From the NCBI GenBank assembly GCA_964387685.1, contig CAYLXK010000024.1:7149-71148 (forward strand): a stretch of DNA of 64,000 nt. Reading direction: 5' to 3'. Source of the stretch: an uncultured Bryobacter sp. GTDB lineage: Bacteria > Acidobacteriota > Terriglobia > Bryobacterales > Bryobacteraceae. The position numbers were made by a program, and so were the translations under genes. This document shows positions 35,837 through 52,325 of this stretch, piece by piece. The notes under the pieces were generated by a model. It did no database searches, was not told the DNA's origin, and was given only the letters and a program-made list of their open reading frames with translations. The first letter of the stretch is position 1. Every line of letters begins with the position of its first letter.

Positions 35837-35857
35837 AAATGAGGAGGAGCGGAGAGC

Positions 35858-36232
35858 TCAGGGGGCGGCGCCGCGGTCGTCTTCCACCTCCATTGACTCT
35901 AACCTAATGTGCTCGCCGCTGCGCAGATCGGCGGTGGGCAGCCCGCAGAGCGGGCAACGGAAGGACTGCAAGCTCGCCAAGGGAGACGTGGCGTTACAGG
36001 CGCGGCAAAAGACGGTGACGGCTTCGGGTTCGATCAGCAAAGCGGCGCCTTCGAGCGGGGTGCCGGCCGCGGCGAGGGGAAAGCTGAAGCGCAGTGCGTC
36101 CCTTGAGACGCCGCAGAGATCTCCGGCGAGGACGGTGAGGGAGAGGACGCGCGGGGTGGCGTGGCCCTCGGCTGTGTTCAGAGCCTGTAGGGCTGAATCC
36201 ACCAGGGCGTAGCTGACCGAGAGTTCATGCAT
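35858..36232 (-). CDS. hypA: Hydrogenase nickel-insertion protein HypA
   Basis: MHE N-terminal Ni motif. Zn site CRAC...CPLC. About 124 aa from ATG 36232. The upstream ORF extension was discarded. Confidence 0.85.
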   Translation of the reverse strand: MHELSVSYALVDSALQALNTAEGHATPRVLSLTVLAGDLCGVSRDALRFSFPLAAAGTPLEGAALLIEPEAVTVFCRACNATSPLASLQSFRCPLCGLPTADLRSGEHIRLESMEVEDDRGAAP

Positions 36233-36242
36233 CGAGCGCTTG

Positions 36243-36258
36243 TGGACTAGCTTATGCT
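36243..36258 (+). promoter_or_regulatory. Candidate sigma-54 (-24/-12) promoter for hypF
   Basis: TGGACTAGCTTATGCT, with GG and GC separated by 10 nt, about 26 nt upstream of ATG 36284 and with AAGG in between. Confidence 0.3.
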
Positions 36259-36283
36259 GCCGGGGCTGAGCTAAGGTTTGGGG

Positions 36284-38554
36284 ATGAGCTCCGAAGGCGA
36301 GAGGCGGCACCGCTGGCGAATGCGCGTCAGGGGGGTGGTGCAGGGAGTGGGATTCCGGCCTTTCGTGGCGCGGCTTGCGGGGGAACTCGGGCTGGATGGC
36401 TGGGTGCGCAATCGGACCGGGGCGGTGGACCTAGAGGTGGAGGGAAGTCTTGCGGCACTGCGGCGCTTTCAGGAACGGATGGAGGAGGAAGCACCGCCGG
36501 CGGCCACGATTGAGCATGTGGAGAGGGAGGACTGCAGCGTCACAGGAGCGCCGGGCTTTCAGATTGGCTCGAGCCTGGAAGGCGAGAGCCAGAGTGGCGG
36601 CCTGCCGGCGGACTTGTCGATGTGCGAGGAGTGCCGGCGAGAGCTGGGCGATCCAGGGGATCGCCGTTACGGTTATGCGTTTTTGAACTGCACGGCGTGT
36701 GGGCCGCGTTATTCGATTGTGCGGGCCTTGCCCTATGACCGTGTGCGCACTTCGATGGACGTGTTTCCGCTTTGCCCGCGGTGCCGGGAGGAGTATGAAG
36801 ACCCCCGGGATCGGCGCTACCATGCGGAGCCGATCGCTTGCCCGCAATGTGGTCCGCAACTGGAGTATGCCGGAACAGTGGAAAAGTCAGCAGGGACGGC
36901 GGTTGAACTGGCGGCGGAGGCGCTGCGGGCGGGCCAAACGGGAGCGATCCAAGGAATTGGCGGCTTTCATCTCGCGGTGAATGCGCGCGACGGAGCGGCG
37001 GTGGGACGGTTGCGGGAGCGCAAAGGGCGGGGCGAACAGCCTTTGGCTTTGATGGTGCGTGATCTGGCGACGGCGAGGGAGTTTGTGGAGCTGGATGAGC
37101 AGGCGGTGGGACTGCTAAAGGCGTCGAGTGCGCCGATTGTCCTGTTGCCCAAGAGGGGGCTGACGCAGGTGGGGGAGGCTCTGGCGCCGGGGAACGGGTA
37201 CCTGGGCGTGTTGCTTCCGTATAGCCCGATGCACTGGCTGCTGCTGCATCAGGAGGAAGACCTGGATGCCTTGGTGATGACGTCTGGCAATCGGCATGGG
37301 GAGCCGATGGCCACGAGTAGGCAGGAGGCGAGGGAGAAGCTGGGGGCGTTGGCGGATTTTTTTCTCACGCATAACCGGGAGATTGTGGCGGCGGCGGACG
37401 ACTCTGTGGTGCGGCTGTATCGAGGGAGGGCGCTGGCGATCCGGCGGGGGCGGGGATATACCCCGCTGATGTTGCAGATTCCGGTGGAAGGGGGAACGGT
37501 GGTAGCGGCGGGGGCGGAACTGAAGGCGGCGGTGGGAGTGGCGAAAGGAGAGCGGGTGTGGCTGGGGCCGCACTTAGGGGATGTGGAGAATTTGGCGACC
37601 TTGGAGGCATTGGAGAAGAATGTGAATCACCTGAGCGGCTTGTTTCGGGTGGAGGCCGAAGCGGTGGTGCACGATGCGCATCCGGGCTACCTGTCGACGG
37701 AATGGGCCCAGCGCTATGCGGCCAAGAGGGGAATTGTGGCTTGGGGGGTGCAGCATCACCGGGCGCATGTTGCTTCCGTGCTGGCGGAGTATGGCGTGGG
37801 GCCGGAGGAGCGAGTGGTGGCGGCGGTCTTTGATGGGACGGGCTATGGGGACGACGGCGCGATCTGGGGTGGGGAGTTCTTTTGTGGACCGGTGGCGGCG
37901 CTGAAACGGCGAAGGCATTTGCCCTATGTGCTGCTGCCCGGGGGCGATGGGAGTGCCAGAAGGCCCGCGCTGGCCGCGGTGGCGCACTTGGCGGCGTGCG
38001 GAATCGACTGGGAGGATACGGCGGCCGGGCGAGGGCTGGGGGCGGTGGAGAAGAGTTTGCTTGCGCGGCAGATGGAGCGGGGATTCCATTGTCATGCCAC
38101 GTCGAGTATGGGAAGACTGTTCGATGCGGCGGCGAGCCTGCTGGGGGTGCGGCAGCGGATTCGGTACGAGGCGCAAGCGGCCATCGAGATGGAGGCCCGC
38201 GCGGCGGCCTGGGGCAGGGAGGAGAGCTACGGGGCGGGGTTGTGGCGACTGGACGAACTGTGGCGGGAGTTGTTGGACGATGGAGCGGAAATAGAAGCGC
38301 GGGCGCGGCGCTTTGGGGGATGCGTGACGCGCTGGACGATGGAGACTGTGACGAATTTGTGTGCCGGGGAGGGATCGGAGACGGTGGTGCTGGCGGGCGG
38401 GGTATTTCAGAACGTGTTGCTGCTGCAGGAGCTAACGCGAAAGCTGGAAATGGCGGGATTGCGGGTATTAGTGCCGCGCTGGTTGCCGCCCAACGATGGA
38501 GGTCTGGCGCTAGGTCAGTTGTACCTGGCGGCAACCCAGTGCGGGCCACGCTAA
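36284..38554 (+). CDS. hypF: [NiFe] hydrogenase maturation carbamoyltransferase HypF
   Basis: Acylphosphatase RVRGVVQGVGFRPFV. Two zinc-finger pairs CxxC-x18-CxxC (CEEC...CTAC; CPRC...CPQC). YrdC-like and Kae1-like regions. ATG 36320 is an alternative start. Confidence 0.9.
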   Translation: MSSEGERRHRWRMRVRGVVQGVGFRPFVARLAGELGLDGWVRNRTGAVDLEVEGSLAALRRFQERMEEEAPPAATIEHVEREDCSVTGAPGFQIGSSLEGESQSGGLPADLSMCEECRRELGDPGDRRYGYAFLNCTACGPRYSIVRALPYDRVRTSMDVFPLCPRCREEYEDPRDRRYHAEPIACPQCGPQLEYAGTVEKSAGTAVELAAEALRAGQTGAIQGIGGFHLAVNARDGAAVGRLRERKGRGEQPLALMVRDLATAREFVELDEQAVGLLKASSAPIVLLPKRGLTQVGEALAPGNGYLGVLLPYSPMHWLLLHQEEDLDALVMTSGNRHGEPMATSRQEAREKLGALADFFLTHNREIVAAADDSVVRLYRGRALAIRRGRGYTPLMLQIPVEGGTVVAAGAELKAAVGVAKGERVWLGPHLGDVENLATLEALEKNVNHLSGLFRVEAEAVVHDAHPGYLSTEWAQRYAAKRGIVAWGVQHHRAHVASVLAEYGVGPEERVVAAVFDGTGYGDDGAIWGGEFFCGPVAALKRRRHLPYVLLPGGDGSARRPALAAVAHLAACGIDWEDTAAGRGLGAVEKSLLARQMERGFHCHATSSMGRLFDAAASLLGVRQRIRYEAQAAIEMEARAAAWGREESYGAGLWRLDELWRELLDDGAEIEARARRFGGCVTRWTMETVTNLCAGEGSETVVLAGGVFQNVLLLQELTRKLEMAGLRVLVPRWLPPNDGGLALGQLYLAATQCGPR

Positions 38555-38563
38555 ACTTTCGAG

Positions 38564-39946
38564 GTGTCCTTGCCCCCGCAACTTTCGCTTGCCATTGTGG
38601 ACGATAACCTGGACAGCCTGGAGCTCATGCAGGAGGCACTGCACGAGGAAGGAATCGAGGTTCACTACTTCAGCGTGCCTGAAGAGGGGCTGGAGTTCAT
38701 TCTGCAAAAGCGGCCGCAGATCGTTATGACGGACTTGGTGATGCCGCGCCTGGACGGTATGGCCATGCTGGATCGCATCATGGCGGTGGATCCGACGATC
38801 GATGTGATCCTGATGACCGCCTACTATTCGACGGAGTCCGCGGTGGAGGCGATCCGGAAGGGTGCGACAGACTATCTGGACAAGCCGATTTCCGTAGAGA
38901 CGTTGCGCAAGAGGGTGGGCAATTTAGCGCGGATGCATCGGGCGAGATTGCGGGCGCTGGATCCGCAACAGAACTACCCAAATGGCCACGAGTTTGAAGG
39001 GATGATCGGCAATAGTCCGGAAATGTGGAAACTCTACGCGCAAATCCAGCGGGTGGCGCCGCATTTTCGGACGTTGCTGGTTCAGGGAGCGACCGGGACC
39101 GGTAAGGAACTGGTGGCAAGAGCGCTACATCGTTTAAGCGGAGTGCGGGGAGAGCTGGTGGCGCTGAATTGCTCGGCGGTGGTGGAGACGTTGTTTGAGA
39201 GCGAGCTATTCGGGCACGTGAAGGGGGCCTTCACGGGAGCGACGGGAAACAAAACGGGCCTGTTTGAGCACGCGCACGAGGGTACCCTGTTTCTCGACGA
39301 GATTGGGGATATGCCGCTGGCGACGCAAGCCAAGCTGTTGCGCGCGGTGCAGCATCAGGAGGTGCAGGCCTTGGGGGCGCTAACGGCGCGGAAGGTGGAG
39401 GTGCGGGTGATTGCGGCCACGCACCGGGATCTGCGGGCGATGATTCTGGAAGGACGATTCCGCGAAGATTTGTTTTACCGTTTGGCGATGGTGGAGTTGC
39501 ATGTGCCGAGCCTGCTGCAGCGCAACGGGGATGTGGAATTGCTGGCGCGTAGCCTGACGCGGAAGTGGGCTAAACAATATGGGCGGGAACTACAGGGTTT
39601 GACGCCCCGAGCCATGACGGTGTTGAAGCGCCATTTGTGGCCGGGCAACGTGCGGGAACTGGAGAACGTAATTGGGCACGCGGCGATGATGACGCGGGGG
39701 CCGCAAATTGATGTGGCGGATTTTCCGGGATATTTGATTCGGGGCGAGCCAGGAATGGGCGAAGGGAAGCGGCGCGCGGGGGCCGGGGAGGACGCGGGCG
39801 GCCTGGCGGGTCTGGCGGAGCGGGAAAAGGAATTGCTGGTTGAGGCCTTGAATAAGAGCGGAGCCAACCAGAGCCGCGCGGCCCGGATTCTACAGATTAG
39901 CCGGGATAAGCTGCGCTACCGGATGAAGAAGTACGACCTGGACTAG
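38564..39946 (+). CDS. Sigma-54-dependent NtrC-family response regulator (HupR/HoxA-like position)
   Basis: Receiver ([13 protein letters not shown]). AAA+ ([27 protein letters not shown]). Fis-type HTH ([21 protein letters not shown]). GTG start 9 nt after the hypF stop. Confidence 0.85.
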
Positions 39947-39983: not shown

Positions 39984-41900
39984 TTAACGGCCGAGGTGCA
40001 GGCCGACGGTAATTTGCTGCACGCCAAAGGCCTCGTATGCGAATAGGCTTTGGCCGTAAGAGATGTTACGCCATTCGGCCAGGAAGCCCAATTGGGAATG
40101 GAGGGGGATGCGCAGACGGCCCAAGGGTTGGTAGTAGCGGCTGGGGCGGCTGCCGGAGGAGCGAAAGACACTGCCGCCGAGCGTGAGGAGGCTGTGGCGG
40201 GGGAGGCGCAGGTCTGCGGCGAGAGTGCCGGTGTGTGCGTTGTCGCGGTAGAGGCTGCGCTCGGGATCGTAGCCGACGGGGTCAAGATAGGTGAGGTCGG
40301 AAAAGATGGTGGAGCGGGTGTAGTCCGCCATGACGGAGAAGGCTTTGCGGGTCCACTGGAGAGTGAGGTTGGATTGCTGGGAACGGAAATCGAGACCGAC
40401 GCCCAGGGTGGGATTGGAGTTGTTGAGGCGCACGAAGCGGGAATTGAGCTGCCAGGAATCGGAAATCTGGTAGCGGGCGCGCAGGCGGAGTTGTTCAAAG
40501 TTTTGGAGGCTAGTGCGGAAGTAGGTTTGATCGCCGCGGCCGACTTCGGTTTCGGCATTGAAGGTGAGCTTAGTAGTGGGCCGGAAGACGAAGCCACCCA
40601 GGGCGGAATGGCGGCGAAGCGCGGCGCCTTCGAGGACGGGGCCGGGAGCGAGCGAGGCGCGGCGCACCTCGGAGTCTCCCCAGAGAAAGCGGTGGCCGCC
40701 AAAGAGGGTAAAGCGCTTGCTGAAGTCGTAGAAGACCTGGAGGCGCTGTTCGTTTTGCCGCCAGATGAGGCGGTCGTTGGAATTGACCGGAGGCAGCGAG
40801 CGCGCGTCTACGGTGCTCTGGAGGAAAAGCGAACCCGCGTTGTGGGTGCGTTCGATTTGCCAGGAATCGAGGACGCGCAGGCGCGCCAGGGGCCGGACTT
40901 CGAGGGTGAGGCCGCCGGCGGTCCTGGGCTGGCTGGCATAGCCGGTGGCGAGGGATTGTTGGCCGTTAACGAAACGCAAAGTGTCCAGGCGAAGGATCGT
41001 GCCTTGCGCGGACTCATTGAACGTGACTTCGGAGCGAGGGCGGGAATAGTAGAATTCGGCGCTGATGTCGAGCCAAGCGAGGGGAGAGAGGGTGAGGTCC
41101 GCGGAGGAGTAGATGTGCCCACCGTTCACGTCATAAAGCTGCGTGGCGCGGTCTATGAGGAGAGGGCGGCCGAAGTAAGTGGATTCTCGATTGCCGGTGT
41201 TGCGCAGGGTGTTAACGAGAGAGCTTTCATCGCGGAAGCGGGCGCCGCCTTGTTCGAGGGAGAGGTGGAGCTTTTCCAGTTCCAGGCGCAGGCCACCGCG
41301 TACGACGGTGTAGCCGTAATCGATGCGGCTGGCGGCGGGGTAGCTGTTTTCGTCGAGGACGAAGGGGCTGACGCCGGAGCCGAGGCCCGTATTCTGAGCG
41401 ACGCCGAAGAAGGGGGTCCAGCGGCGGCCGGGAAGGAAGTCGAAGTCGGCGTTCCAGAAGCGCTGGCGGGTATCGGTGGCGCGCTGGTTGGTGGTGTAGG
41501 CCTCGGGGCCGAGCTTGGCGAGTTGGGGACTGGCGAAGGAAGGCAAGGCGTTGAAATAGGCGAGGTTGCGGTAACTGAAGGTGGCCCGGTAGAGGGCGGA
41601 CTTTTCCGCATTTAACAGAAAGGTGTTAAGAGGGTCGCCCCAGTTGGCGCCATGGAGGCGCAGCTCATCGAGAAAGGCGAAGGAAGGGGGCTTGTAGGTG
41701 GTCTGGAACTGGAGCAGGCGAGGACCTTCGCCGAGATTGACGATGCTGCGATAAGTGTTAAAGCTGCCGTGCTGGCCGGCAAGGGCGCGGTAGCCGATGT
41801 CGCTGGAGGCTTGGAAGGGGGATTCCGCAGGCGTGGGGGCCGCGGCTGGCTCCTGGGGGTGCATCAGGACGGCAAGGAGGAGGGACGCGAGGAGTCTCAT
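39984..41900 (-). CDS. MtrB/PioB-like outer-membrane beta-barrel (porin partner of decaheme cytochrome)
   Basis: 638 aa. Short signal peptide. Alternating hydrophobic/polar beta-strand pattern throughout with Y/F/W/R-rich girdles. ATGA overlap with the MtrA-like gene. The call rests mainly on size, composition and synteny. Confidence 0.6.
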   Translation of the reverse strand: MRLLASLLLAVLMHPQEPAAAPTPAESPFQASSDIGYRALAGQHGSFNTYRSIVNLGEGPRLLQFQTTYKPPSFAFLDELRLHGANWGDPLNTFLLNAEKSALYRATFSYRNLAYFNALPSFASPQLAKLGPEAYTTNQRATDTRQRFWNADFDFLPGRRWTPFFGVAQNTGLGSGVSPFVLDENSYPAASRIDYGYTVVRGGLRLELEKLHLSLEQGGARFRDESSLVNTLRNTGNRESTYFGRPLLIDRATQLYDVNGGHIYSSADLTLSPLAWLDISAEFYYSRPRSEVTFNESAQGTILRLDTLRFVNGQQSLATGYASQPRTAGGLTLEVRPLARLRVLDSWQIERTHNAGSLFLQSTVDARSLPPVNSNDRLIWRQNEQRLQVFYDFSKRFTLFGGHRFLWGDSEVRRASLAPGPVLEGAALRRHSALGGFVFRPTTKLTFNAETEVGRGDQTYFRTSLQNFEQLRLRARYQISDSWQLNSRFVRLNNSNPTLGVGLDFRSQQSNLTLQWTRKAFSVMADYTRSTIFSDLTYLDPVGYDPERSLYRDNAHTGTLAADLRLPRHSLLTLGGSVFRSSGSRPSRYYQPLGRLRIPLHSQLGFLAEWRNISYGQSLFAYEAFGVQQITVGLHLGR

Positions 41901-42883
41901 CGCAAGAAGTCCCGGCTAATGTGAGAGCCATGCACCTTGGAGTGGCACACCGTGCAGTTTTGGTAGACGGGCAAGCGCAGGTCGTGAAAGCCGGTGGGAA
42001 CGGTTCCAAGCGTGCCGGAGCGGTTAGAGAGGGCAGGGGTGTTGGCGTGGCATTCGAGACAGAGGTTGCTGACTTGGGCGCGATTCAGAAGGCGGGGATT
42101 GGCCGAGCCATGATTCTCGTGGCAAGCGGAGCAGCCTTCGAGGCGAATAGGGGCGTGCTCAAAGACGAAGGGACCGCGCTTGTCGGCGTGGCACTTGAAG
42201 CAACCGGGTTCGGCGTTCGTGGTGCGGGCGGTAGTGTTAAGGCCGAAGGGCCGTGAAGTGCCGTGGGGATTGTGGCAATCGATGCAGGACATGGCGCCCG
42301 CGGGGACGGCGTGGCCATGGGGGCGCTGGAAGGAAGCCCAGGCGCTGGCGTGGCAGGTGGAACAGAGTTCATTGACGCGCGTGGCCCGGGAGGTAGGAAG
42401 AGCCAAGCGGCTCAGTGACGCGGGGGATTGAGGCGTGAAATCCCGAAAGAGGGGAACGGAGGAATCGTTTAAGGCATGGTGAACCGAGTGACAAGAGACG
42501 CAGGAGACTTGTACCTTGGCGTGGGAACCGCTGATGCGGCCGGCGTGGGTGGCCTGATTCTTGTGGCAGGACAAGCAGGAAGAGTCCGCCTCGCGGGGCG
42601 TGGCTTTGCTGTGATTGAGAATGAACTTGGCTTCGGCGGCTTCGCCGTGCTTTAAGCCCGGCCCGTGGCAGGATTCGCAGGACTGGCCTTTCCAGCCGCG
42701 GACGGTGTCCGTTTCCACTTTGCCGTGGCGAGATTTCAAGAAGGCCTTGCCGAGGTCCTCATGGCAAACCAGGCAGGCTTCGGTGCCGGCGTAGCCCTCT
42801 TTGTCCGTGCGCGCTTTTTTGGGCGCAGCGAAGGTGGCGGCAGCCAGCACAAAGAAAATCGCCGAGGCGACCAGGGGCCGCAT
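41897..42883 (-). CDS. MtrA/DmsE-family periplasmic decaheme c-type cytochrome
   Basis: 328 aa, signal peptide, ten CxxCH sites. Blocks collinear with Shewanella MtrA as I recall it: CESCHGPGLKH, CIDCHNPHG, CFKCHADKRGPFVFEHAP...CSACHENHGS...CLECHA, and C-terminal CTVCHSKVHGS. Confidence 0.85.
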   Translation of the reverse strand: MRPLVASAIFFVLAAATFAAPKKARTDKEGYAGTEACLVCHEDLGKAFLKSRHGKVETDTVRGWKGQSCESCHGPGLKHGEAAEAKFILNHSKATPREADSSCLSCHKNQATHAGRISGSHAKVQVSCVSCHSVHHALNDSSVPLFRDFTPQSPASLSRLALPTSRATRVNELCSTCHASAWASFQRPHGHAVPAGAMSCIDCHNPHGTSRPFGLNTTARTTNAEPGCFKCHADKRGPFVFEHAPIRLEGCSACHENHGSANPRLLNRAQVSNLCLECHANTPALSNRSGTLGTVPTGFHDLRLPVYQNCTVCHSKVHGSHISRDFLR

Positions 42884-42884
42884 G

Positions 42885-44924
42885 CTATTGAGCGTGAACT
42901 CTGGCCACGGAGAACTCGGCGTTGGGGCCGTGGCAGACGGTGCAGCTCTCCCCCAGCGGCGCGGTGTTCAGTTGCGCGTGGGCCGCCGCCTCCTTGGAGG
43001 TGTGGCAACTGAGGCAGGCGGCCGAGGTGGCCCCGGGCGTGGTCAGCCAAGCTCGCGGGTCCGTGACGGGCAGCAGATTTGGCCGCAGGGGCAGGTTCTG
43101 CGAATTATTGACGTGGCAGGTGCTGCAATTGGCGGCGGTGGTGGGGAAGCCGATGTTACTGAAGTCGTTGACGGAGGCGTTAAAACCGTAAATGATGAGC
43201 GGCCGGCCCTGTTCCTTGCCGGTATGGATCCGGTGGATCATCGAGGCAAAGCTGATGCTTTCATTGGGGGCCTGGGCGGCGGGACGGCGAGCGGAGTCCG
43301 TCATGGTGGAGTTGTGGCAAACAACGCACTCGGAAATTTCATTGCGGTTGCGGCCGTGGGCTTCGATGCGCGTGTGGCAGACATTGCACTTCTCGGTGGT
43401 TACGACTTGGCGACGGGGCTCGACCCGGGAAGAGTCCACGCTGAAATAGGTAATGACATTTTTGAGGGGATCGCGGACGGTGGTGGGAATGCGGCCGGGA
43501 CCTTCAAAAGAAACGTTGCGGTAGCCTTCGGCGCTGATGGAGTAGGTGCCCTGGGCGTCGCTGGGGATGGCGCGAGCAAAGCGGTGCGACGCGGTGCCGC
43601 TGGGGGAAAGGGTATCGGTGCGGGAGGCTTCCGACCAGTACGCGGTGTAATCGGGCGCGGGCCCGGCGAGAATGAGCGAAAGCGCCGTCATATCTGTTGG
43701 GGCAAGAATCTTGCCTTCGGAATCCTTGAGGCGATAGGTAATCGTCGGGTTTTGGCCGGGCGCGGTATCGCGTACCTCAAGCAGCTCGATCGTCTGGCCT
43801 TTGAGATTTTTCGAAAACTCGGGAACGACATGGGCGCCCTTGACGGAGATATCCCACTCGCGTTCTCCCTCGGGCCGGTGGCACTGGGAGCAACGGGAAT
43901 CGTCGGTCTGGGCAATGTGACCTTTGCCGGCGGCGAAATCAATGCCGTCGTGGCAGGAGCCGCAAGCGGCGCGGGTCGGGTTAAACAGGGCCGTGGCCTG
44001 GGACGCCGCGTTGGGGCCGGATTGGGTATGGCAAGCGGCACAATTGCGTGGGTTGGCCGGGAAGCCGATGGTGGAGTAATCGTGAAGGGTCTGCTGGTTT
44101 CCGATGATGGTGTACTTCGTGCCGGCCCGGACGCTGGGCAGATCCTTACCCATGTGGATCTTATGGGTCAGCACGGTCATGTCGACGGTATTGCCGGTGT
44201 CGGGGTCTACGGTTTGGGGGGTATGGCAGAGAACGCACATTTCCATGCCGCGGCGGGAGCCGCCATGGGCGGATAGCGTCACGTGGCAGGTTGTGCACGA
44301 AGCGGTTTTGATGACGTCGCGCACCTGAGTGACAGGGCTGCCGTCGGGGACGAAATCGAAGGTGGCGCTGGCGTAGTTGGTGCCGAGGTCGAAGGCGGTG
44401 AGGTTACGGTTGGAGTAGGCCCCAATAGTGTGAGTAGCGGTGCGGTCGAAATTGGCGGGGGCGCGGGTGCGGAAGGTGTAAGTGTACTCGCCGTCGTCGT
44501 TCTTGACCCAGGTGCCACCGGTGTCGGCGGCCGCCTGCGTGGCCGAGACGCGGGTAATGGGACTGGTTTGGATGCGCGTGGTGTAGGAGGTGTAAACGGA
44601 TTGATCTTTGGGCAAGAAGGCGGCGACAAAACTGATGGAGACGGGGCCGGGCGTGAAGACGCCTTCGCGGTCGAGAGGAACCCCCAAGGGATCGGTGATG
44701 CGGACCCGCGCCGCCATCGAGCCGTCGGGATTGACGACGGCGGCGACGATCTTCAAGTTAAGGCCCGGCCGGACGAAATTGATCGTCTTTTCGTCGGCGT
44801 AGAAGGCCTTCTCCAGTTCGCTGAAACTGCGCTTGCCCAGGCCTGTGGCGAGAGAGGCGGCGGCGAGAAGCAGCCCCACGACGGTGGGCCAGAAGTATCG
44901 ATGGGTTCGAAAAAACATGCTCAT
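42885..44924 (-). CDS. MtrC/OmcA-like decaheme c-type cytochrome (5+5 heme architecture)
   Basis: Ten CxxCH in two clusters of five (ORF residues 269-408 and 572-724), each preceded by a 160-210 aa heme-free region. Paralogous halves (THKIHMGK / IHRIHTGK). Start MSMFF overlaps the upstream stop (ATGA). ATG 44918 is an alternative start with GGAGGA 5 nt upstream. Confidence 0.65.
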   Translation of the reverse strand: MSMFFRTHRYFWPTVVGLLLAAASLATGLGKRSFSELEKAFYADEKTINFVRPGLNLKIVAAVVNPDGSMAARVRITDPLGVPLDREGVFTPGPVSISFVAAFLPKDQSVYTSYTTRIQTSPITRVSATQAAADTGGTWVKNDDGEYTYTFRTRAPANFDRTATHTIGAYSNRNLTAFDLGTNYASATFDFVPDGSPVTQVRDVIKTASCTTCHVTLSAHGGSRRGMEMCVLCHTPQTVDPDTGNTVDMTVLTHKIHMGKDLPSVRAGTKYTIIGNQQTLHDYSTIGFPANPRNCAACHTQSGPNAASQATALFNPTRAACGSCHDGIDFAAGKGHIAQTDDSRCSQCHRPEGEREWDISVKGAHVVPEFSKNLKGQTIELLEVRDTAPGQNPTITYRLKDSEGKILAPTDMTALSLILAGPAPDYTAYWSEASRTDTLSPSGTASHRFARAIPSDAQGTYSISAEGYRNVSFEGPGRIPTTVRDPLKNVITYFSVDSSRVEPRRQVVTTEKCNVCHTRIEAHGRNRNEISECVVCHNSTMTDSARRPAAQAPNESISFASMIHRIHTGKEQGRPLIIYGFNASVNDFSNIGFPTTAANCSTCHVNNSQNLPLRPNLLPVTDPRAWLTTPGATSAACLSCHTSKEAAAHAQLNTAPLGESCTVCHGPNAEFSVARVHAQ

Positions 44925-46318
44925 CCTCCAAGTTCCTGTATTGCCTTCAGATTCTTCTCTTCGACGCCCAGGACCTTGTGGCAGGCCTCGCAATCCTGGG
45001 TAATGGCTTTGCCGGGCGTTTTTGCCTTCAAGTCGTCGCCATGACAGCGGAAGCAACCGGGTGAGGCCGTGTGCCCGACATGTTGGGGATAGGTTCCCCA
45101 AGTGATTTTCATTTCCGGAAAGACGTTGCGGCGGTGGAGTGTGGCCAGTTCCTGGCTGGCTTGGCCGAGCGTGGAGGCGTGGGTCGCGAGGGCCGCCGGT
45201 TGATGAAGGCGGTAGTAGCGATTCAGCTCCTCGGCGATGGCTTTAGAGGGGTCGGGCTTGGAGGCGTAGTCTTTGGCCAGGACTTCCAAGGCGGCCCGAC
45301 GGAAGAAAGGAATCGATTGGGGAAGCCGGCCCTGGGTCATGGCGAGATCGATGGCCCGTTCAGGATTCTCAAATTCATGGGCGGGCCGATTGTGGCAATC
45401 GAGACAATCCATGCGCCGGCTAAAGGCGGCTTTGGCTTTGCCCGAGCTAAAGTCGGCCGACTCATAGGTGTCGGTTTGACCTCCCTTGGTCACGCGAACG
45501 GCCAGGATGGTTTCGCGCTTAGGGTCGGCGGCGTCATAGTCGATGCTCAGGCCGCGGCCCATGTGGGCGCCGTGAATGCCTTGGCCCTCGGCGCCCCCCA
45601 GTTTTAGCAGTAGCGCGGTCTCCAGGCGTTCGCCCTGGTCGTCGAACTGGGTGCGCCGCCAGAGGCGATTGCCGTAGTCGTGATTGCGGGAGTGGCAGTT
45701 CTCACAGGTTTCCGAGGCCGGTTTGAGGGCATGAGGTGGAGAGGGAATGGGACGGTTGTATCCGCCGGTCATCACGAGAAAGAGTTGCCGGGTTCCATTG
45801 AGCTTGGCGCGGATGGCGTTGCCCGCGCCTTCGCCAATGTGGCAGGCGACGCATTTAACTTGCGCATGGGAACCAGCCTGATAGGCGCGATGTTCGGGAT
45901 CCATGACATGGCAAGCGGTGCCGCAGAAGTTGGTGCTCTCCATGTAATGGACGGCCTGGTAGGTAAGCGCCCCGCCGATGACGAGATTGACAAAGGTTGC
46001 TCCCGCGATAAAGACGAGAAAGCGCCGGATCTTGGGGTTGCTGAGCTCGATTTTTTCCGGCCAGTGGATTTGGTGATCCGGGGCCTCGCGCCGGCGCTGC
46101 ATGCTGATGCCGATGGGCACCAGGAGGAGCCCTAGGAAGAAGGCGGCGGGTAGAGCGACAAACTGGAGAATGCCGAGGTATCCGGAGGCCTCGCTCGCGC
46201 CCGTCAGGAAGATCCAGAGGACCATAGCCGAAAGCACGAAGAAGAAGCCGGTGCGGCTGATCCAGTTGTCGGTTAAATAGAGTACCGGCAAGAGCCAGCG
46301 CTGTGCGAATTTCCCCAT
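44921..46318 (-). CDS. Membrane-anchored NapC/NirT-like multiheme cytochrome (candidate quinol dehydrogenase)
   Basis: 465 aa with three N-terminal TM helices. NapC-like TNFCGTACHVM...SHAQVKCVACH. Five CxxCH (CVACH, CENCH, CLDCH, CFRCH, CEACH) plus one CxxxCH (CGTACH). Confidence 0.7.
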   Translation of the reverse strand: MGKFAQRWLLPVLYLTDNWISRTGFFFVLSAMVLWIFLTGASEASGYLGILQFVALPAAFFLGLLLVPIGISMQRRREAPDHQIHWPEKIELSNPKIRRFLVFIAGATFVNLVIGGALTYQAVHYMESTNFCGTACHVMDPEHRAYQAGSHAQVKCVACHIGEGAGNAIRAKLNGTRQLFLVMTGGYNRPIPSPPHALKPASETCENCHSRNHDYGNRLWRRTQFDDQGERLETALLLKLGGAEGQGIHGAHMGRGLSIDYDAADPKRETILAVRVTKGGQTDTYESADFSSGKAKAAFSRRMDCLDCHNRPAHEFENPERAIDLAMTQGRLPQSIPFFRRAALEVLAKDYASKPDPSKAIAEELNRYYRLHQPAALATHASTLGQASQELATLHRRNVFPEMKITWGTYPQHVGHTASPGCFRCHGDDLKAKTPGKAITQDCEACHKVLGVEEKNLKAIQELGG

Positions 46319-46357: not shown

Positions 46358-46675
46358 CTATTGCTTGAGAGTGCGGACGTAGGCCAAGATGTTGGCGACA
46401 TCCTTTTCGACGGCGGGCATGGCCTTCATCTTGCCGACGCCTTCGAGGGTTTCTTTCTTCAGGGCAGCGTCGGACTTAGCCTGGACCTCTTTCGAGCCGA
46501 GGTGCTTCATTTCGACCTTGAGCATTTTGCCGATGGCGGCGTTGGGGGCGCCGTCGGCGCCATGGCACTTCTTGCAGGCGGCGTCATAAGCGGTCTTACC
46601 GGACGCCAAGTCGGCGGCGGAGGCCAAAGCGGACACCCAGACGAGAGAAAGCAGCAAGGGCAGAGTTCGTTTCAT
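46358..46675 (-). CDS. Periplasmic monoheme class I cytochrome c
   Basis: 105 aa from ATG 46675. Signal MKRTLPLLLSLVWVSALASA. Single CKKCH. Distal Met candidate in GKMKAMP. Confidence 0.8.
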   Translation of the reverse strand: MKRTLPLLLSLVWVSALASAADLASGKTAYDAACKKCHGADGAPNAAIGKMLKVEMKHLGSKEVQAKSDAALKKETLEGVGKMKAMPAVEKDVANILAYVRTLKQ

Positions 46676-46687
46676 CGCGGCTCTACA

Positions 46688-46703
46688 AGCAAGTGAGTGG
46701 CCA
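46688..46703 (-). promoter_or_regulatory. Sigma-54-like -24/-12 element upstream of the cytochrome operon (weak; implies a near-leaderless mRNA)
   Basis: The minus strand reads TGGCCACTCACTTGCT with correct GG-N10-GC spacing. The GC lies only 13 nt before the ATG. Confidence 0.2.
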
Positions 46704-46840: not shown

Positions 46841-46856
46841 TGGCCCCCTGATTGCA
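46841..46856 (+). promoter_or_regulatory. Candidate sigma-54 (-24/-12) promoter for the hydrogenase operon
   Basis: TGGCCCCCTGATTGCA against the consensus TGGCAC-N5-TTGCA. About 28 nt upstream of ATG 46885, with AAAGGAAG as RBS. Confidence 0.45.
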
Positions 46857-46884
46857 CAGTAGGGACTGGCTGAAAGGAAGTGGA

Positions 46885-48000
46885 ATGATGCTGGCCACCG
46901 CACCCGCTTCAACGTCTCAAGTTCTTCAACGGCGAGGAATTAGCCGCCGCGACATACTCACTTTTTGCACTATGACGGCCGCGTCCCTCGGCCTGCCCCC
47001 GGAGGCGGCGGCGCAAATCGCCGAGGCGCTGGAAACAAAGCCGCGCATCCCGGTGCTTTGGATTCATGGGTTGGAATGCACGTGTTGCAGCGAATCGTTT
47101 CTGAGGTCGACGCACCCGGTTGCGCAGGACATTCTGTTCAACATGATTTCGCTGGATTATGACGACACGCTCCAGGCCGCGGCGGGCCATCAGGCCGAAG
47201 AGATCCGCAAGCGAATCATGAAGGAGTACAAAGGCCAATACCTGCTGGCGGTGGAAGGCAACGCGCCTACCAACGACGGGGGCGTCTATTGCACGGTGGG
47301 CGGCGAAACGTTTACGAGCATTCTGGAAGAGGCCGCGGCGGGCGCCAAGGCCATCCTGGCCTGGGGCAGCTGCGCGTCCAACGGATGTGTGCAGGCGGCT
47401 TACCCAAACCCGACCGGCGCGAAGCCCGTGTACAAGATGATCACCGACAAGCCGGTCATCAACGTGCCCGGATGCCCGCCGATTGCGGAAGTGATGACCG
47501 GGGTATTGAGCTATCTCCTGACCTTCGACCGGATTCCGGAACTGGATGCGTTCCGGCGGCCGAAGATGTTTTACGGGCAGCGGATTCATGACCGCTGCTA
47601 CCGAAGGAGCTACTTTGACGCGGGGCAATTTGTTGAGAAGTGGGACGACGAGGGGGCGCGGAAGGGTTGGTGCCTTTACAAGATGGGGTGCCGCGGTCCG
47701 TCAACCTACAATGCCTGCGCTTCGATGAAGTGGAACGAGTGTGTTTCGTTCCCGATCGGTTCTGGGCATGGCTGTTTCGGATGCTCGGAAGACAATTTTT
47801 GGGATAACGGACCGTTCTATGAGCGCTTGGCGAATATTCCGGTGCCGACCACGGACCTGACGGCGGACCGGGTAGGTCTGGGCTTGAGCGCCGTGGTAGC
47901 CGGGGCGATTGCCGCGCATGGAGTGGCGGCGCTAGCCAAACACAATCTGACGCAGATCAAAGCAGCCCCCGCAAGCAGTACGACGAAGCCGGAAGCCTAG
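46885..48000 (+). CDS. hyaA: [NiFe] hydrogenase small subunit, group 1 (Hyd-1/MBH-like), Tat signal, C-terminal TM anchor
   Basis: [12 protein letters not shown] Tat motif. [33 protein letters not shown]-terminal helix [20 protein letters not shown]. Near-collinear with E. coli HyaA as I recall it. Confidence 0.9.
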
Positions 48001-48009
48001 GAGCCAGCT

Positions 48010-49737
48010 ATGTCTACCCGAGTCGTAGTAGACCCGATTACCCGCATTGAAGGACATCTGCGGGTGGAAGCGATCCTGAACGATCGGAATGTGATTGGCG
48101 ACGCCTTGTCCAGCGGGACGATGTGGCGCGGGATCGAATTGATTGTGCAGGGGCGGGACCCAAGAGAGGTATGGGCCTTCGCCGAACGGATTTGCGGGGT
48201 GTGTACGACGATCCACGCGCTGGCCAGCGTGCGCAGCGTGGAGAACGCGCTCGGAATCGAGATCCCGAAAAACGCAAGCATTATCCGCCAACTGATGAAC
48301 TTTACGCAGATCGTGCAGGATCACGTGATTCACTTTTATCACCTGCATGCGTTGGACTGGGTGGATGTGGTGTCGGCGCTGAAAGCGGATCCGGCGGCGA
48401 CCTCGGCGCTGGCGCAGAAGGTGTCGCCGCACTGGCCCAAGTCCTCGCCGGGCTACTTTGCCGATACGGCGGCGACGTTGAAGAAGTTTGTCGATTCCGG
48501 TCAACTCGGTATCTTTCAGAATGCCTACTGGGGCCATCCCGCCTACAAGCTGCCGCCAGAGGCGAATCTGATGGCGGTGGCGCACTATCTCGAAGCGCTG
48601 CAGTGGCAAAAGGAAGTGGCCAAGATCCACACGGTATTTGGAGGCAAGAATCCGCATCCCAACTATCTGGTGGGGGGCGTGGCGTGCGCGATCAGTCTCG
48701 AGGGCGACAACGCGCCGATCAATATGGAGCGGCTGAATTTTGTCAAGGATCTGATCACGGAAGCGATCCGGATCGTCGAGCAGCTTTATATTCCGGACCT
48801 AGTGGCGATCGCGAGCTTTTATCCGGAATGGACGAAGATCGGCGGGGGGCTGGGTAGCTTCATGTCCTACGGCGACATGCCGACGGACTACGATTTGGGC
48901 AATCCGTCGAAGTTCCGTTTTCCGCGCGGGGTGATTCTGAACAAGAAACTGGGCGAAGTGCTGCCGCTGGACCTGGCGGACTTTGGCCAGGTGCAGGAGG
49001 AGGTGACGCACTCCTGGTACGAGTACGGGAACGGGAAGCAGACCTTGCACCCATGGGAAGGCGAGACGAAGGCAAAGTATTCGGGGCCGAAACCGCCTTA
49101 TAAGCAATTGGATGAAACGCAAGGATACTCCTGGGTGAAGACCCCTCGCTGGCGAGGGCACGCGGTGGAAGTAGGGCCGCTGGCGCGGATGGTGATCGGC
49201 TATGCCTCGGGCAATGGGCCGATTCGGGATGCCGTCAAGTGGGGATTGGAGACGACGAAATTGCCGATCGAGGCGTTGTTTTCGACACTCGGACGGACCT
49301 TTGCGCGGGGCCTCGAGACGAAGCTGGCCGTGCACTGGATGAGGGACGAGTTCAACAACTTGATGGCGAATCTGAAAGCGGGCGATTTGACGACTGCGGC
49401 GACAGCGAAATGGGATCCGTCCAGTTGGCCGAAGGAGGCCAAGGGAGTGGGCTTTGTGGAGGCGCCGCGCGGCTCGTTGGGACATTGGATCCGGATCCAG
49501 GATCAGAAGACGGCGTCCTACCAGATCGTGGTGCCGTCGACATGGAACGCCTCGCCTCGCGATGCCAAGGGCCAGCACGGCGCCTATGAGGCTGCGCTGA
49601 TTGGCACGCCAATGGTGGACGGGATGAAGCCCGTCGAGATACTGCGGACGATTCATTCGTTCGACCCCTGCCTGGCCTGCGCGACGCATGTAATGGGCGC
49701 GGGCGGTGAAACCCTGGCCAAGGTAATTGTGCGTTAG
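48010..49737 (+). CDS. hyaB: [NiFe] hydrogenase large subunit, group 1
   Basis: VVDPITRIEGH. L1 motif ERICGVCTTIH. L2 motif SFDPCLACATH followed by a 15-aa tail for endopeptidase cleavage. Confidence 0.95.
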   Translation: MSTRVVVDPITRIEGHLRVEAILNDRNVIGDALSSGTMWRGIELIVQGRDPREVWAFAERICGVCTTIHALASVRSVENALGIEIPKNASIIRQLMNFTQIVQDHVIHFYHLHALDWVDVVSALKADPAATSALAQKVSPHWPKSSPGYFADTAATLKKFVDSGQLGIFQNAYWGHPAYKLPPEANLMAVAHYLEALQWQKEVAKIHTVFGGKNPHPNYLVGGVACAISLEGDNAPINMERLNFVKDLITEAIRIVEQLYIPDLVAIASFYPEWTKIGGGLGSFMSYGDMPTDYDLGNPSKFRFPRGVILNKKLGEVLPLDLADFGQVQEEVTHSWYEYGNGKQTLHPWEGETKAKYSGPKPPYKQLDETQGYSWVKTPRWRGHAVEVGPLARMVIGYASGNGPIRDAVKWGLETTKLPIEALFSTLGRTFARGLETKLAVHWMRDEFNNLMANLKAGDLTTAATAKWDPSSWPKEAKGVGFVEAPRGSLGHWIRIQDQKTASYQIVVPSTWNASPRDAKGQHGAYEAALIGTPMVDGMKPVEILRTIHSFDPCLACATHVMGAGGETLAKVIVR

Positions 49738-49746
49738 GAGCGGCTT

Positions 49747-50487
49747 ATGTCCTCACAAATTCAGGACCCGCAGACTCAAGCCATGGCCGCGCCGGGCGAG
49801 GCGGAAAGGCCGGAATCCCGCTACGTGTGGGAGAGCCCGGTGCGGATCTTTCATTGGATGATTGCGCTGGCGATTCCCGTGCTGCTGGCCACGGGCTTTT
49901 ATATAGCCTGGCCTTTTGCCTCCGTGCAGGGGGAGGCGACGGGAAACTTCTTGATGGGGAGGATGCGGCAGATTCATTTTGGGGCGGGCTACGTGTTGCT
50001 GGCCGCGTTTGCCATTCGGATTTACTGGTTTTTTGCGGGCAATCATTATGCGCGGTCGGGTTTTCCCTTCGTCTGGAAGAAGGCCTGGTGGACGCATCTG
50101 GGCGAGCAGGCGCGCGAGTACCTCACAATTCGCCTCACGAAGCGCTTTGTGGGCCACAACCAGTTGGGCGCCTTGAGCTACCTGCTCTTTGTGGGACTCA
50201 TGGGCGGCGCAGAAATCGCCACCGGCTTTGCGATGTATAGCGAATCGAATCCGGGAGGATTCTGGAGCCGGGTCTTCGGCTGGGTGATTCCGTTCTGTGG
50301 CGGTTCCTATCAAACCCACCAATGGCATCATTTCTTTGCCTGGGGCATTCTGCTGTTTATTGCGATTCACATTTATATCGTGGTGCTGGACAGCATTTAC
50401 CTCGATAACGGAATGGTGGGCAGTATCTTTACCGGACGCAAGTTTGTAAGGAGCACGGATGCCGACAGCAAGACCTGGATCAGTTAA
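49747..50487 (+). CDS. hyaC: Ni/Fe-hydrogenase b-type cytochrome subunit
   Basis: PVRIFHWMIALAIPVLLATGFYI. Four TM helices with conserved His (HFGAGY, HQWHHFF). Confidence 0.85.
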   Translation: MSSQIQDPQTQAMAAPGEAERPESRYVWESPVRIFHWMIALAIPVLLATGFYIAWPFASVQGEATGNFLMGRMRQIHFGAGYVLLAAFAIRIYWFFAGNHYARSGFPFVWKKAWWTHLGEQAREYLTIRLTKRFVGHNQLGALSYLLFVGLMGGAEIATGFAMYSESNPGGFWSRVFGWVIPFCGGSYQTHQWHHFFAWGILLFIAIHIYIVVLDSIYLDNGMVGSIFTGRKFVRSTDADSKTWIS

Positions 50488-50965
50488 GCCGGTGCTGGTG
50501 TTGGGCTTGGGCAATGTCTTATTGACCGACGACGGCTTTGGGCCCACGCTACTCGAGCGGTTGCGGAGGCGGAGCGCCGCCGGGGCGAAGGTGGAGTTTG
50601 TCGATGGGGGAACGATGGGTTTGGGGTTGCTAAGCTTGCTGGCCGAGCGGCGATGCCTGCTAATTTTGGATGCGTTTCGCGCGGGCCGGCCGGCGGGGAC
50701 GCTGATGGTGGAGCGGAACTTCGAGTGGCAGCAGGCGGGCAAGGTCTTGGGTCGAAGCGCGCACGACGGGAACGCGGCTGGTTTGCTGGCGGTGGCGACG
50801 CTGACGGGCGACTTGCCGCCGCGTCTGGCTTTGGTGGGGGTCGAACCGCAGACCTTGGATACCGGGGTGGGCTTAAGCGACACGGTGGAAGCGCAGCTGC
50901 CCGAGGCGGAGCGGGAAGCCTGGCGATTGATTGAGGAATTGGTGGAGTTGTCCGTATGTGTTTAG
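50459..50965 (+). CDS. hyaD: Hydrogenase maturation endopeptidase (HyaD/HybD/HupD family)
   Basis: [17 protein letters not shown] and LILDA motifs. Confidence 0.85.
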
Positions 50966-51225
50966 CGATACCGGGGCAGGTGATGCGGATCGAGGAGATT
51001 GGCTTCCACCGGGTAGCCCAGGTCTGCTTTGGCGGAGTGGAGCGGCCGGTGTTTGTGGATTTCGTGCCCGAGGCGGTAGCGGGCGACTATGTGCTGGTAC
51101 ACGTGGGCTTCGCGCTCAGCAAGATCGACGAAGAAGAGGCCAAGGCGAGCTTCGCATTAATGGAACGACTGGGATTCATGGAGCCGCTGGACGAGGCCGA
51201 AGAAGTGACGCAGGAGGACCCATGA
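50956..51225 (+). CDS. hypC: HypC/HybG/HupF-family hydrogenase chaperone
   Basis: [10 protein letters not shown]-terminus with the essential Cys2. 89 aa. Confidence 0.9.
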
Positions 51226-52325
51226 GATACGTCGATGAGTATCGGGACCCGGCGCTAGCTCAGGCGGTACTGCGTGAGATCCGCGCGCGCGTAACGCGGC
51301 CTTGGGTGTTGATGGAGATCTGCGGCGGGCAGACCCACAGCCTGATGCGCTATGGAATCGACGAGCTGCTGCCGCCGGAACTGGAACTGGTGCATGGGCC
51401 GGGCTGCCCGGTTTGCGTTACGCCGCTGGAAATGATCGATAAGGCGCTGGAGATCGCCGCGCGGCCCGAAGTGATTTTTCTCACCTATGGCGACATGATG
51501 CGCGTGCCGGGATCGGCGAGCGATTTATTGGAGGTGAAGGCGCGCGGAGGCGACGTTCGCTTTGTGTACTCGCCCATGCAGGCTGTGGAGGTGGCGCGAA
51601 AGAATCCGGGGCGGCAGGTGGTTTTCTTTGCGGTGGGATTTGAGACGACGGCGCCCGCTAACGCCATGGCCGTCTGGCGGGCGGCGAAGGAAGGGATCGG
51701 AAATTTTTCGTCGCTGGTCTCGCATGTGCTGGTGCCGCCGGCGTTAATGGTGCTGCTCGGTTCAGCCCAGAACCGGGTGCAAGGGTTGATCGCGCCGGGC
51801 CACGTATGTACGGTGGAAGGCTGCCGCGATTATGAGGCGCTGGTGGAGCGCTTCCGAGTGCCGGTGGTGGTGGGGGGCTTTGAACCATTGGATTTGTTGG
51901 AAGCGATTCTGCTGCTGGTAAGGCAGTTGGAGGAAGGGCGCTGGCTGCTGGAGAACCAGTACAAGCGAGCCGTGAGCGCGGAAGGCAATGCGGTGGCGCG
52001 CGGGCTGGTGGCGGAAGTCTACGAGGTGTGCGATCGGAAGTGGAGAGGGATCGGAGAGTTGGCGCGGAGCGGCATGCGGCTGCGGGAAAAGTATGCGGGA
52101 TTTGACGCCGAAAGGGTTTTCGGGCTGACGGGGGAAGGCGTGGCCGAAGATGTGGAGTGCCGGAGCGCGCAGGTGCTGATGGGCCAAATGAAACCGACGG
52201 ATTGCCCCGCCTTCGGAGTGCGCTGCACGCCGGAAAAGCCCCTGGGCGCGCCCATGGTCTCGAGCGAAGGGGCCTGCGCGGCCTACCATCGCTATAAGCC
52301 GCAACTGGTGCAGGTGGCGCGGTGA
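51222..52325 (+). CDS. hypD: Hydrogenase maturation factor HypD
   Basis: [27 protein letters not shown] and FETTAP. ATGA overlap with hypC. The long ORF from 50931 is an artefactual extension. Confidence 0.9.

Follow-up and report, generated by a model that had tools for sequence, protein, structure and literature searches.

The 64,000-nt stretch of DNA analysed here (the window: positions 7,149 to 71,148 of contig CAYLXK010000024.1, assembly GCA_964387685.1, from an uncultured Bryobacter sp. of the Acidobacteriota) carries on its minus strand five tightly packed genes, which encode a monoheme cytochrome c, a membrane-bound multiheme cytochrome, an MtrC-like decaheme cytochrome, an MtrA-like decaheme cytochrome and a protein in the position of an outer-membrane barrel. 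The second of these genes, here called imcH-like, is the subject of this work. An earlier note, made from the DNA alone, had proposed that its product is a NapC/NirT-like cytochrome acting as quinol oxidase of a conduit for extracellular electron transfer (EET). In our best reading, which we hold with high confidence, the gene encodes an ImcH-type menaquinol:cytochrome c oxidoreductase of the Bryobacteraceae that would feed the MtrCAB-type operon in which it lies.

Heme sites, conservation and membrane topology

The imcH-like open reading frame (ORF) starts with ATG and runs for 465 codons, and its coordinates (Table 1) take in the stop codon. Since the plus-strand translation of 44921-46318 contains stop codons throughout, the earlier note must have read the reverse complement. 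Re-translation of the 465-aa frame recovered both segments that had been quoted from it, TNFCGTACHVM and SHAQVKCVACH, and showed that the first heme site, CGTACH at residues 132-137, does have three residues between its cysteines (CX3CH). Five canonical CXXCH sites follow, at residues 156, 205, 305, 422 and 443, so that the heme count, previously given as a range of five to six, becomes six sites (one CX3CH and five CXXCH). All twelve Cys residues of the protein lie within these six motifs. With 465 aa and six sites the protein is, as the same note had remarked, larger than the tetraheme CymA and NapC proteins. Its C-terminus is reached 18 residues past heme site 6, short of the last heme of the seven-site ImcH proteins. 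The overall architecture consists of three transmembrane (TM) helices, a NapC/NirT-like core, a beta-sheet insert, a helical insert and a c7-like C-terminal diheme end.

Homologues of the protein are numerous. A word-indexed search returned 3489 relatives at E≤1e-5 among 8000 scored candidates, and an exhaustive search of 50%-identity cluster representatives returned 3129 at E≤1e-3 and 537 at E≤1e-30. The 120 closest homologues (40-76% identity, full length) all carry CX3CH as their first site and six sites in total, and CX3CH is also the first site in 145 of the 150 best cluster representatives, of which 89 have six sites and 33 have seven. The retention of the motif in these two sets shows that CX3CH is neither a chance occurrence nor a sequencing artefact. 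In one cluster representative, P0205, the first site is a canonical CXXCH. ImcH cores with long multiheme extensions were also seen, with lengths of 600-1166 aa and 8-28 heme motifs (P0123, P0153, P0158, P0159, P0165, P0185, P0253 and others).

An alignment of 106 homologues shows invariance of the twelve Cys, of the six motif His and of M139 and K172, plus invariance of five His residues outside the motifs (H151, H249, H252, H314 and H416). Five spare invariant His for six hemes suggest that five of the hemes are bis-His ligated and that heme 1 presumably lacks a distal His. Beside K172 (106/106), three further positions are nearly invariant, namely Q178 (105/106), Y187 (104/106) and an Asp or Glu at position 127 (104/106). 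After the first site the window protein reads CH-VM and not CHxVM (45902-45910), the residue between the heme 1 His and Val-Met being deleted in its clade, which makes up 24 of the 106 aligned homologues. This one-residue deletion sets the clade apart from the other six-site ImcH homologues and restores the CXXCHxM-like His-to-Met spacing of NrfH, in which the Met at this place is the proximal heme ligand.

The three N-terminal hydrophobic helices of the earlier note were found both by hydropathy and in a structural model. Kyte-Doolittle analysis (19-residue window, threshold >1.4) marks hydrophobic segments at about residues 19-45, 44-75 and 96-120, in agreement with the long helices of the AlphaFold model at residues 19-38, 46-78 and 95-127. 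The loop between TM2 and TM3 contains five Lys/Arg residues, with two more at the start of TM3; across the 106 homologues the number of Lys plus Arg averages 5.6 in this loop and 0.04 in the loop between TM1 and TM2, and is about 2 at the N-terminus. Under the positive-inside rule, this concentration of charge predicts that the N-terminus and the second loop are cytoplasmic and that the region after TM3 is periplasmic. Covalent heme attachment requires a periplasmic location. The heme domain is thus predicted on the periplasmic side, and not in the cytoplasm, the placement that had been named beforehand as one that would speak against a quinol oxidase of the conduit.

Relationship to NrfH and to the ImcH family

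Homology to NapC/NirT proteins, also part of the earlier proposal, is borne out by Pfam, in which PF03264 matches at 40.2 bits and so exceeds its gathering cut-off (24.1), with an alignment that spans positions 8-100 of the 174 in the profile. Among the NCBIfam models the best match is NrfH (residues 110-211), at 57.2 bits against a curated cut-off of 134.2, with napC_nirT at 11.7 against 310.6 and torC at 23.5 against 478.2. A phmmer search of the PDB matched only NrfH of Desulfovibrio vulgaris (2j7a_C, E=4e-4); in this alignment FCGTACHVM faces FC-TSCHIM, with a one-residue insertion within site 1, and K172 lies opposite a Lys. The AlphaFold model built from the 106-sequence alignment (pLDDT 88.9, pTM 0.81) led to the same protein, since the top three Foldseek matches in the PDB were NrfH chains, with probabilities of 0.84-1.00 (0.99-1.00 for the best two), and the rest were noise. 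The best of them superposes with an rmsd of 3.3 Å over 113 aligned columns, at 23% identity. An earlier model from 14 sequences (pLDDT 67) had given only noise in Foldseek, and NrfH emerged with the 106-sequence model. NrfH is thus the sole solved relative by sequence and by fold. Foldseek found no PDB counterpart for the beta-sheet insert between hemes 3 and 4 (about residues 217-302), nor for the helical insert between hemes 4 and 5 (about residues 319-398).

The protein shares with NrfH (D. vulgaris, PDB 2J7A/2VR0), NapC, NirT and CymA a homologous anchor helix and the first heme sites, and with NrfH also the Met two residues past the heme 1 His and the Lys aligned with the essential NrfH lysine. 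Menaquinol oxidation at the periplasmic side, as in NrfH, NapC and CymA, is presumed. NrfH and CymA differ, however, in having one TM helix and four CXXCH hemes in 140-190 aa, to which the imcH-like protein adds two TM helices, the CX3CH first site, two inserts and two hemes. The core is NrfH-like, yet the protein is not strictly a NapC, NirT, NrfH or CymA.

These results also bear on a more conventional explanation, in which the protein is a NapC/NirT/NrfH-type anchor dedicated to a periplasmic reductase of nitrite, nitrate, trimethylamine N-oxide (TMAO) or dimethyl sulfoxide (DMSO). Such an anchor would be in keeping with a PF03264 score above threshold, with NrfH as best NCBIfam match and with JGI/NCBI names of homologues such as 'nitrate/TMAO reductase-like tetraheme cytochrome c subunit'. 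The NrfH, NapC/NirT and TorC scores, however, fall far under the curated cut-offs, the protein has 465 aa with three TM helices and six hemes where such anchors have one helix and four or, in TorC, five hemes in about 140-390 aa, and the operon contains no nrfA, napA, torA or dmsA, the neighbours being Mtr-type cytochromes. On architecture, score cut-offs and gene neighbourhood we rejected a dedicated NrfH, NapC or TorC role, and we consider an anchor function of this kind extremely unlikely.

In the literature the ImcH family is recognised by three TM helices, a NapC/NirT region and a first heme site of the CX3CH type (PMC4251993; PMC6295460), so that the site seen by the earlier note is present as described but, as a signature of the family, is not atypical. 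Levar 2014 (PMC4251993) described ImcH of Geobacter sulfurreducens (GSU3259, NP_954300.1), the protein on which the family was founded, with homologues in Acidobacteria and Anaeromyxobacter. Zhong & Shi 2018 (PMC6295460) reported 71 ImcH homologues, 19 of them from Acidobacteria; with few exceptions these contain three TM motifs and, beside the membrane domain, a CX3CH that is followed by 5-9 CX2CH. The six-site homologues in Table S3 of that work are 463-489 aa long (Anaeromyxobacter 468, Geothrix fermentans 476, Solibacter usitatus 482, A. capsulatum 479 and Geoalkalibacter 464-465 aa), with one CX3CH, five CX2CH and three TM motifs; the six-site loci include Acid_0432 of Solibacter usitatus, ACP_0476 of Acidobacterium capsulatum and Adeh_1659 of Anaeromyxobacter dehalogenans. 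The window protein has the same set of sites, a similar length and the same three TM motifs, and most of these homologues belong to its own phylum.

Direct comparisons gave a similar picture. Full-length identity of the window protein to Solibacteraceae, Acidobacteriaceae and Holophagaceae proteins is 38-45%. By BLASTP it is 42% identical (E=1e-108) to a six-site protein with the site pattern of Solibacter usitatus, and 37% identical (E=2e-98, residues 47-454) to P0321, a protein of 504 aa with seven sites. The length and the seven site positions of P0321 are those of an entry in Table S3 of PMC6295460, from which it differs in accession and organism name; its seventh heme sits in a C-terminal extension that is absent from the window protein. 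That table seems to number the CX3CH site one past its first Cys, and the retrieved sequences match exactly when it is read in that way. Cluster look-ups gave no accession in common with the table.

For GSU3259 the same table lists 507 aa, heme sites at 132, 156, 205, 311, 428, 448 and 486, and TM segments at 13-35, 45-67 and 100-122. The window protein shares with it the second and third sites at 156 and 205, and hence a gap of 49 residues, the gap of 117 residues between sites 4 and 5, the three N-terminal TM helices, the NapC/NirT-like region, the CX3CH directly past TM3 and the predicted periplasmic heme domain. The surroundings of heme 1 also correspond. A 2023 preprint on purified G. sulfurreducens ImcH describes E127, H137 (heme 1), K173, Q179 and Y188 as conserved residues of an NrfH-like menaquinol site, with Q179 as the predicted distal ligand of heme 1; mapped by residue number and not by alignment, their counterparts in the window protein are E127, H137, K172, Q178 and Y187. 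The two proteins differ in that GSU3259 has seven sites, whereas the window protein lacks the C-terminal extension with heme 7, and in the gap between sites 3 and 4, which is six residues shorter in the window protein. Geobacter was absent among the 80 best genome loci, as it was from a homologue search seeded with the seven-site P0180, which led to Vicinamibacteria, Rokubacteria and NC10.

Since ImcH is defined by its three TM helices and by CX3CH as first site, we take the window protein for a six-site member of the family and not for one that only recalls it. Judged by its sequence features, it fits an ordinary six-site member of the described family, with little new in the protein itself. 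The earlier note had likened it to an ImcH/CbcL class. The ImcH half of this likeness stands, on TM helices, CX3CH, site spacing and heme 1 residues, while the CbcL half does not. CbcL combines a nine-heme domain at its N-terminus with a six-helix, HydC/FdnI-like dihaem b domain at its C-terminus (PMC6295460), and Pfam and NCBIfam scans found no b-type cytochrome domain in the imcH-like protein, which has six hemes; a CbcL-like identity was ruled out by this architecture. CbcL, MtrH and MtoC, as inner-membrane quinol oxidases for EET that are sometimes clustered with mtrAB (PMC6295460), are functional analogues only and unrelated.

The operon, its occurrence in relatives and its neighbourhood

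The earlier note had tied the gene to a conduit, and family scores agree with this, since directly downstream of imcH-like lie an mtrC-like and an mtrA-like gene whose products score above the cut-offs of the MtrC and MtrA families (Table 1). The mtrC-like protein matches the structures of MtrF, OmcA and MtrC at E=6e-33 to 1e-14. The TGA of imcH-like and the ATG of mtrC-like overlap as ATGA, with GGAGGA before it (GGAGGATGA; 44921-44930), an overlap that implies translational coupling of the two genes. The ORF list stretches mtrC-like to a TTG at 45101; the ATG at 44924 suits the signal peptide MSMFFRTHRYFWPTVVGLLLAAASLATG. The N-terminus is signal-peptide-like and contains no Cys in its first ~200 residues, so that the protein would have no lipobox, unlike the lipoproteins MtrC and OmcA of Shewanella. 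The 638-aa protein encoded after mtrA-like is, by its position, a putative outer-membrane barrel, and it is conserved after the mtrA-like gene in eight related loci, with 27-71% identity. No sigma-70-like promoter and no convincing terminator was found between the operon genes. This arrangement differs from that of GSU3259, since imcH is monocistronic in Geobacter (PMC4251993) whereas the window gene overlaps the mtrC-like gene, and in contrast to the G. sulfurreducens system the window operon encodes no PpcA-type triheme partner.

Table 1. Genes, heme sites and other features of the locus (window coordinates)
Feature	Coordinates	Strand	Description	Basis
imcH-like gene	44921..46318	minus	465 aa, inner-membrane hexaheme c-type cytochrome	ORF, motifs, Pfam PF03264 and PF14522, AlphaFold, >3000 homologues
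Membrane domain TM1-TM3	45938..46264	minus	Residues 19-127; TM3 as counterpart of the single NrfH anchor helix	Hydropathy, model helices, charge distribution, NrfH alignment from residue 99
NapC/NirT (PF03264) homology region	45755..46018	minus	Residues 101-188; takes in heme sites 1-2, K172, Q178 and Y187	Pfam, NrfH model, Foldseek, conservation
Heme site 1	45908..45925	minus	C132-GTA-C136-H137 (CX3CH), then V138 and M139	Motif; invariant in 106 homologues
Heme site 2	45839..45853	minus	CVACH, residues 156-160	Motif; invariant in alignment
Heme site 3	45692..45706	minus	CENCH, residues 205-209	Motif; invariant in alignment
Heme site 4	45392..45406	minus	CLDCH, residues 305-309, inside family signature DCxDCHNRPxH	Motif, alignment
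Heme site 5	45041..45055	minus	CFRCH, residues 422-426	Motif; GCFRCH invariant
Heme site 6	44978..44992	minus	CEACH, residues 443-447	Motif
Monoheme cytochrome c gene (first of operon)	46358..46675	minus	105 aa, secreted, class I (CKKCH; signal peptide end ASA/AD)	PF00034, PF13442, sequence
mtrC-like gene	42885..44924	minus	679-aa OmcA/MtrC-family decaheme (10 CXXCH)	TIGR03507, 478 bits against cut-off 209
mtrA-like gene	41897..42883	minus	328-aa periplasmic DmsE/MtrA-family decaheme (10 CXXCH, signal peptide)	TIGR03508, 226.6 bits against cut-off 192.2
Barrel-position protein gene	39984..41900	minus	638 aa, secreted, heme-free, in mtrB position	Signal peptide, no CXXCH
Candidate sigma-54 (-24/-12) element	46689..46703	minus	TGGCCActcacTTGC, GG-N10-GC type (TGGCCA-N5-TTGC)	13 nt upstream of cytochrome c start
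NtrC-type sigma-54 activator gene	38564..39946	plus	Receiver, AAA+, HTH_8; convergent with operon end	Domains

In order to see how the imcH homologue and the conduit genes are placed in relatives, we surveyed by tblastn the best 80 related loci, each from a genome representing one species. The closest of them, L001, comes from a metagenome-assembled genome (MAG) of a Bryobacter sp. (77% identity) and shares the gene order of the window operon; the other 79 are nearly all from Acidobacteriota (Bryobacterales, Solibacteraceae, Acidobacteriaceae, Acidoferrum and Holophagales), with a few from other phyla. In 13 of the 80 loci (L001, L003, L007, L010, L026, L028, L039, L040, L066, L067, L069, L074 and L077) the imcH homologue has an mtrC-like gene no more than 10 kb away, accompanied by an mtrA-like gene in 12 of the 13 and by the barrel-position protein in most. 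Gene order and orientation differ among these 13, and a linkage that recurs while the arrangement changes speaks for a functional association. In about 15 further loci an MtrA-like decaheme alone was found near the imcH homologue.

Published surveys had given another picture. Zhong & Shi 2018 (PMC6295460) found no mtrAB beside imcH, and Baker et al. 2022 (PMC8805035) reported that the mtrCAB clusters of their Group 5 (Bryobacterales/Acidobacteriia) have no quinone oxidoreductase of the inner membrane close by and that mtrB is followed there by a tetraheme cytochrome. The window operon shares with Group 5 the lineage and the core of mtrC, mtrA and, by position, a putative barrel gene, but it has imcH-like directly upstream of mtrC, and past the putative barrel gene a sigma-54 regulator instead of the tetraheme cytochrome. 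The locus contradicts what both surveys state on the adjacency of imcH and mtr genes. We found no description of an imcH-mtrCAB linkage in the literature searched, the coverage of which is incomplete. Novelty is low for the protein and modest, at the level of context, for the operon linkage.

The candidate sigma-54 element upstream of the operon (Table 1) has a counterpart in L001, where a closer match to the consensus, GGCACtcgaaTTGCA (GGCAC-N5-TTGCA), lies at the equivalent place (~9643-9657). Matches to the pattern over the whole window (66) do not exceed the number expected (74.7), and the element is therefore a lead only, retained because of the better match at the same place in L001. A second match, with one mismatch, is found at 46841-46855 on the plus strand, before the hydrogenase small-subunit gene. 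The NtrC-type activator gene that converges on the end of the operon adjoins the cluster also in L001 and L003.

The conduit operon is set within hydrogenase genes. Divergent from it, at 46852-53392, are genes for the small and large subunits of a NiFe uptake hydrogenase, a cytochrome b, a maturation protease, hypD and hypE, and on its other side lie hypB and hypF (35177-38554). L001 has the same conduit-within-hydrogenase layout, and this setting hints at H2-driven EET. Base composition around the cluster gave no island signature (GC 0.60-0.64). Beyond the hyp genes, an 840-aa ORF (32567-35089, minus strand) has two Lamin Tail Domain repeats and a phytase-like esterase domain, with no obvious respiratory link.

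The hydrogenase neighbourhood allows for a membrane-anchored relay without a quinol reaction, in which the imcH-like protein would pass electrons from another inner-membrane complex, for example the hydrogenase, to the conduit. The embedding of the operon in a hya/hyp neighbourhood that is conserved in L001 is compatible with such a relay, as is the fact that activity data for ImcH come from G. sulfurreducens only, outside the six-heme subgroup. Quinone reduction by the hydrogenase is, however, provided for by a cytochrome b subunit of its own in the membrane, the residues of the NrfH-like quinol site (Lys172, Gln178, Tyr187 and the acidic 127, with heme 1 lacking a distal His) are invariant or nearly so, and G. 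sulfurreducens ImcH is reduced by menadiol. We judge a relay very unlikely and keep to an ImcH-type menaquinol oxidase.

Proposed electron route and its significance

While the heme motifs, their conservation, the NrfH-like core, the predicted topology and the layout of the operon were read from the data, it is by homology to NrfH and to purified G. sulfurreducens ImcH that we attribute to the window protein an activity as quinol oxidase, a direction of electron flow and a partner. The purified G. sulfurreducens protein was reduced by menadiol, and its hemes titrate from -358 to -150 mV (2023 preprint); it passes electrons to periplasmic PpcA, with protons released to the P side. That extracellular acceptors of high potential are reduced only where ImcH is present is likewise known from G. 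sulfurreducens alone. In the route that we propose for Bryobacter, the three N-terminal helices would hold the protein in the membrane, the N-terminus facing the cytoplasm and the heme domain lying in the periplasm, and menaquinol would be oxidised at the periplasmic membrane face, beside heme 1 and behind TM3. Heme 1, attached through CX3CH and with no distal His available, would form the site together with Gln178 (or Met139), Lys172, Tyr187 and the acidic residue 127. The last three may take up the protons, to be released then to the periplasm, which would make the menaquinol oxidation step electroneutral. Electrons would run from heme 1 to hemes 2-6, for which H151, H249, H252, H314 and H416 are the predicted second ligands, and on to an acceptor in the periplasm, which would be the monoheme cytochrome c of the operon or, directly, the MtrA-like decaheme. 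Exit from the cell would take place via the MtrC/MtrA/porin-like conduit encoded directly downstream, and H2 would serve, through the hydrogenase encoded nearby, to reduce the quinone pool.

The role of the monoheme cytochrome c is, together with the direction of flow, the main uncertainty in this route. The cytochrome has a probable Met ligand in KMKAMP, and among solved structures it is closest to small soluble cytochromes c, c554 and c6 and to CcoP domains. As a class I protein of the His/Met type it is likely of high potential, and it resembles MtoD of the iron-oxidiser clusters more closely than a low-potential shuttle. The imcH-like protein might then be a quinone reductase in a pathway of electron uptake or Fe(II) oxidation, with electrons entering through the MtrCAB-like conduit and the monoheme cytochrome sharing them out to the quinone pool and a terminal oxidase, in the manner suggested for the MtoAB, MtoD and CymA/MtoC systems. 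A class I monoheme cytochrome c (c6, c552, CcoP-related) as first gene of the operon, parallel to monoheme MtoD of the mto clusters, speaks for this, and Mtr conduits are known to be bidirectional (PMC6295460). Reverse flow is nevertheless difficult to reconcile with several points. To date, ImcH homologues are known from Fe(III) reducers only (PMC6295460), the operon encodes an extracellular MtrC-type decaheme, and ImcH hemes at -358 to -150 mV are poorly suited to electrons from Fe(II). Also, the adjacent uptake-type NiFe hydrogenase with its cytochrome b feeds the quinone pool, which needs an outlet and not a second input. We regard reverse flow as unlikely, and favour outward flow through an ImcH-type menaquinol:cytochrome c oxidoreductase.

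Several points weigh against this preferred reading and temper it. Class I monoheme cytochromes are usually of high potential, so that as carrier in an outward chain of low potential the co-encoded one is a poorer fit than a PpcA-like triheme would be, and no interaction was seen between G. sulfurreducens ImcH and PccH, a monoheme cytochrome of high potential. The CH-VM deletion of the window's clade may mean that the local geometry of heme 1 differs. The comparison with GSU3259 was drawn from published coordinates and residue numbers and not from an alignment, with membership of the family appearing strongly supported by the sequence features, and the experimental ImcH data from G. sulfurreducens extend neither to six-heme nor to Acidobacterial members. 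Finally, the 638-aa protein matched nothing in NCBIfam, in the PDB or, with E as high as 10, in Pfam, the MtrB and PioB models included; it may be a divergent or unrelated barrel, of a kind that surveys of Mtr clusters based on hidden Markov models (HMM) would miss.

As to the wider meaning of the locus, we see about an even chance that the imcH-like protein is the 'missing' inner-membrane quinol dehydrogenase of the Group 5 MtrCAB systems, a Geobacter-type entry translationally coupled to a Shewanella-type conduit, driven by sigma-54 and placed within an uptake-hydrogenase cluster. If this is true, the cluster would be a self-contained, possibly mobile module for H2-dependent EET in abundant soil Acidobacteria. 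The linkage of imcH and mtr genes suggests, further, that inner- and outer-membrane EET modules are interchangeable. For the family, labels such as 'NapC/NirT family cytochrome c' or 'nitrate/TMAO reductase-like tetraheme subunit', carried by several thousand ImcH-family sequences, mislead. For the Bryobacteraceae, which are abundant in soils and peat, where the reduction of iron and humic substances matters for carbon turnover, the proposed pathway offers a concrete and testable full route from the menaquinone pool to the cell surface.

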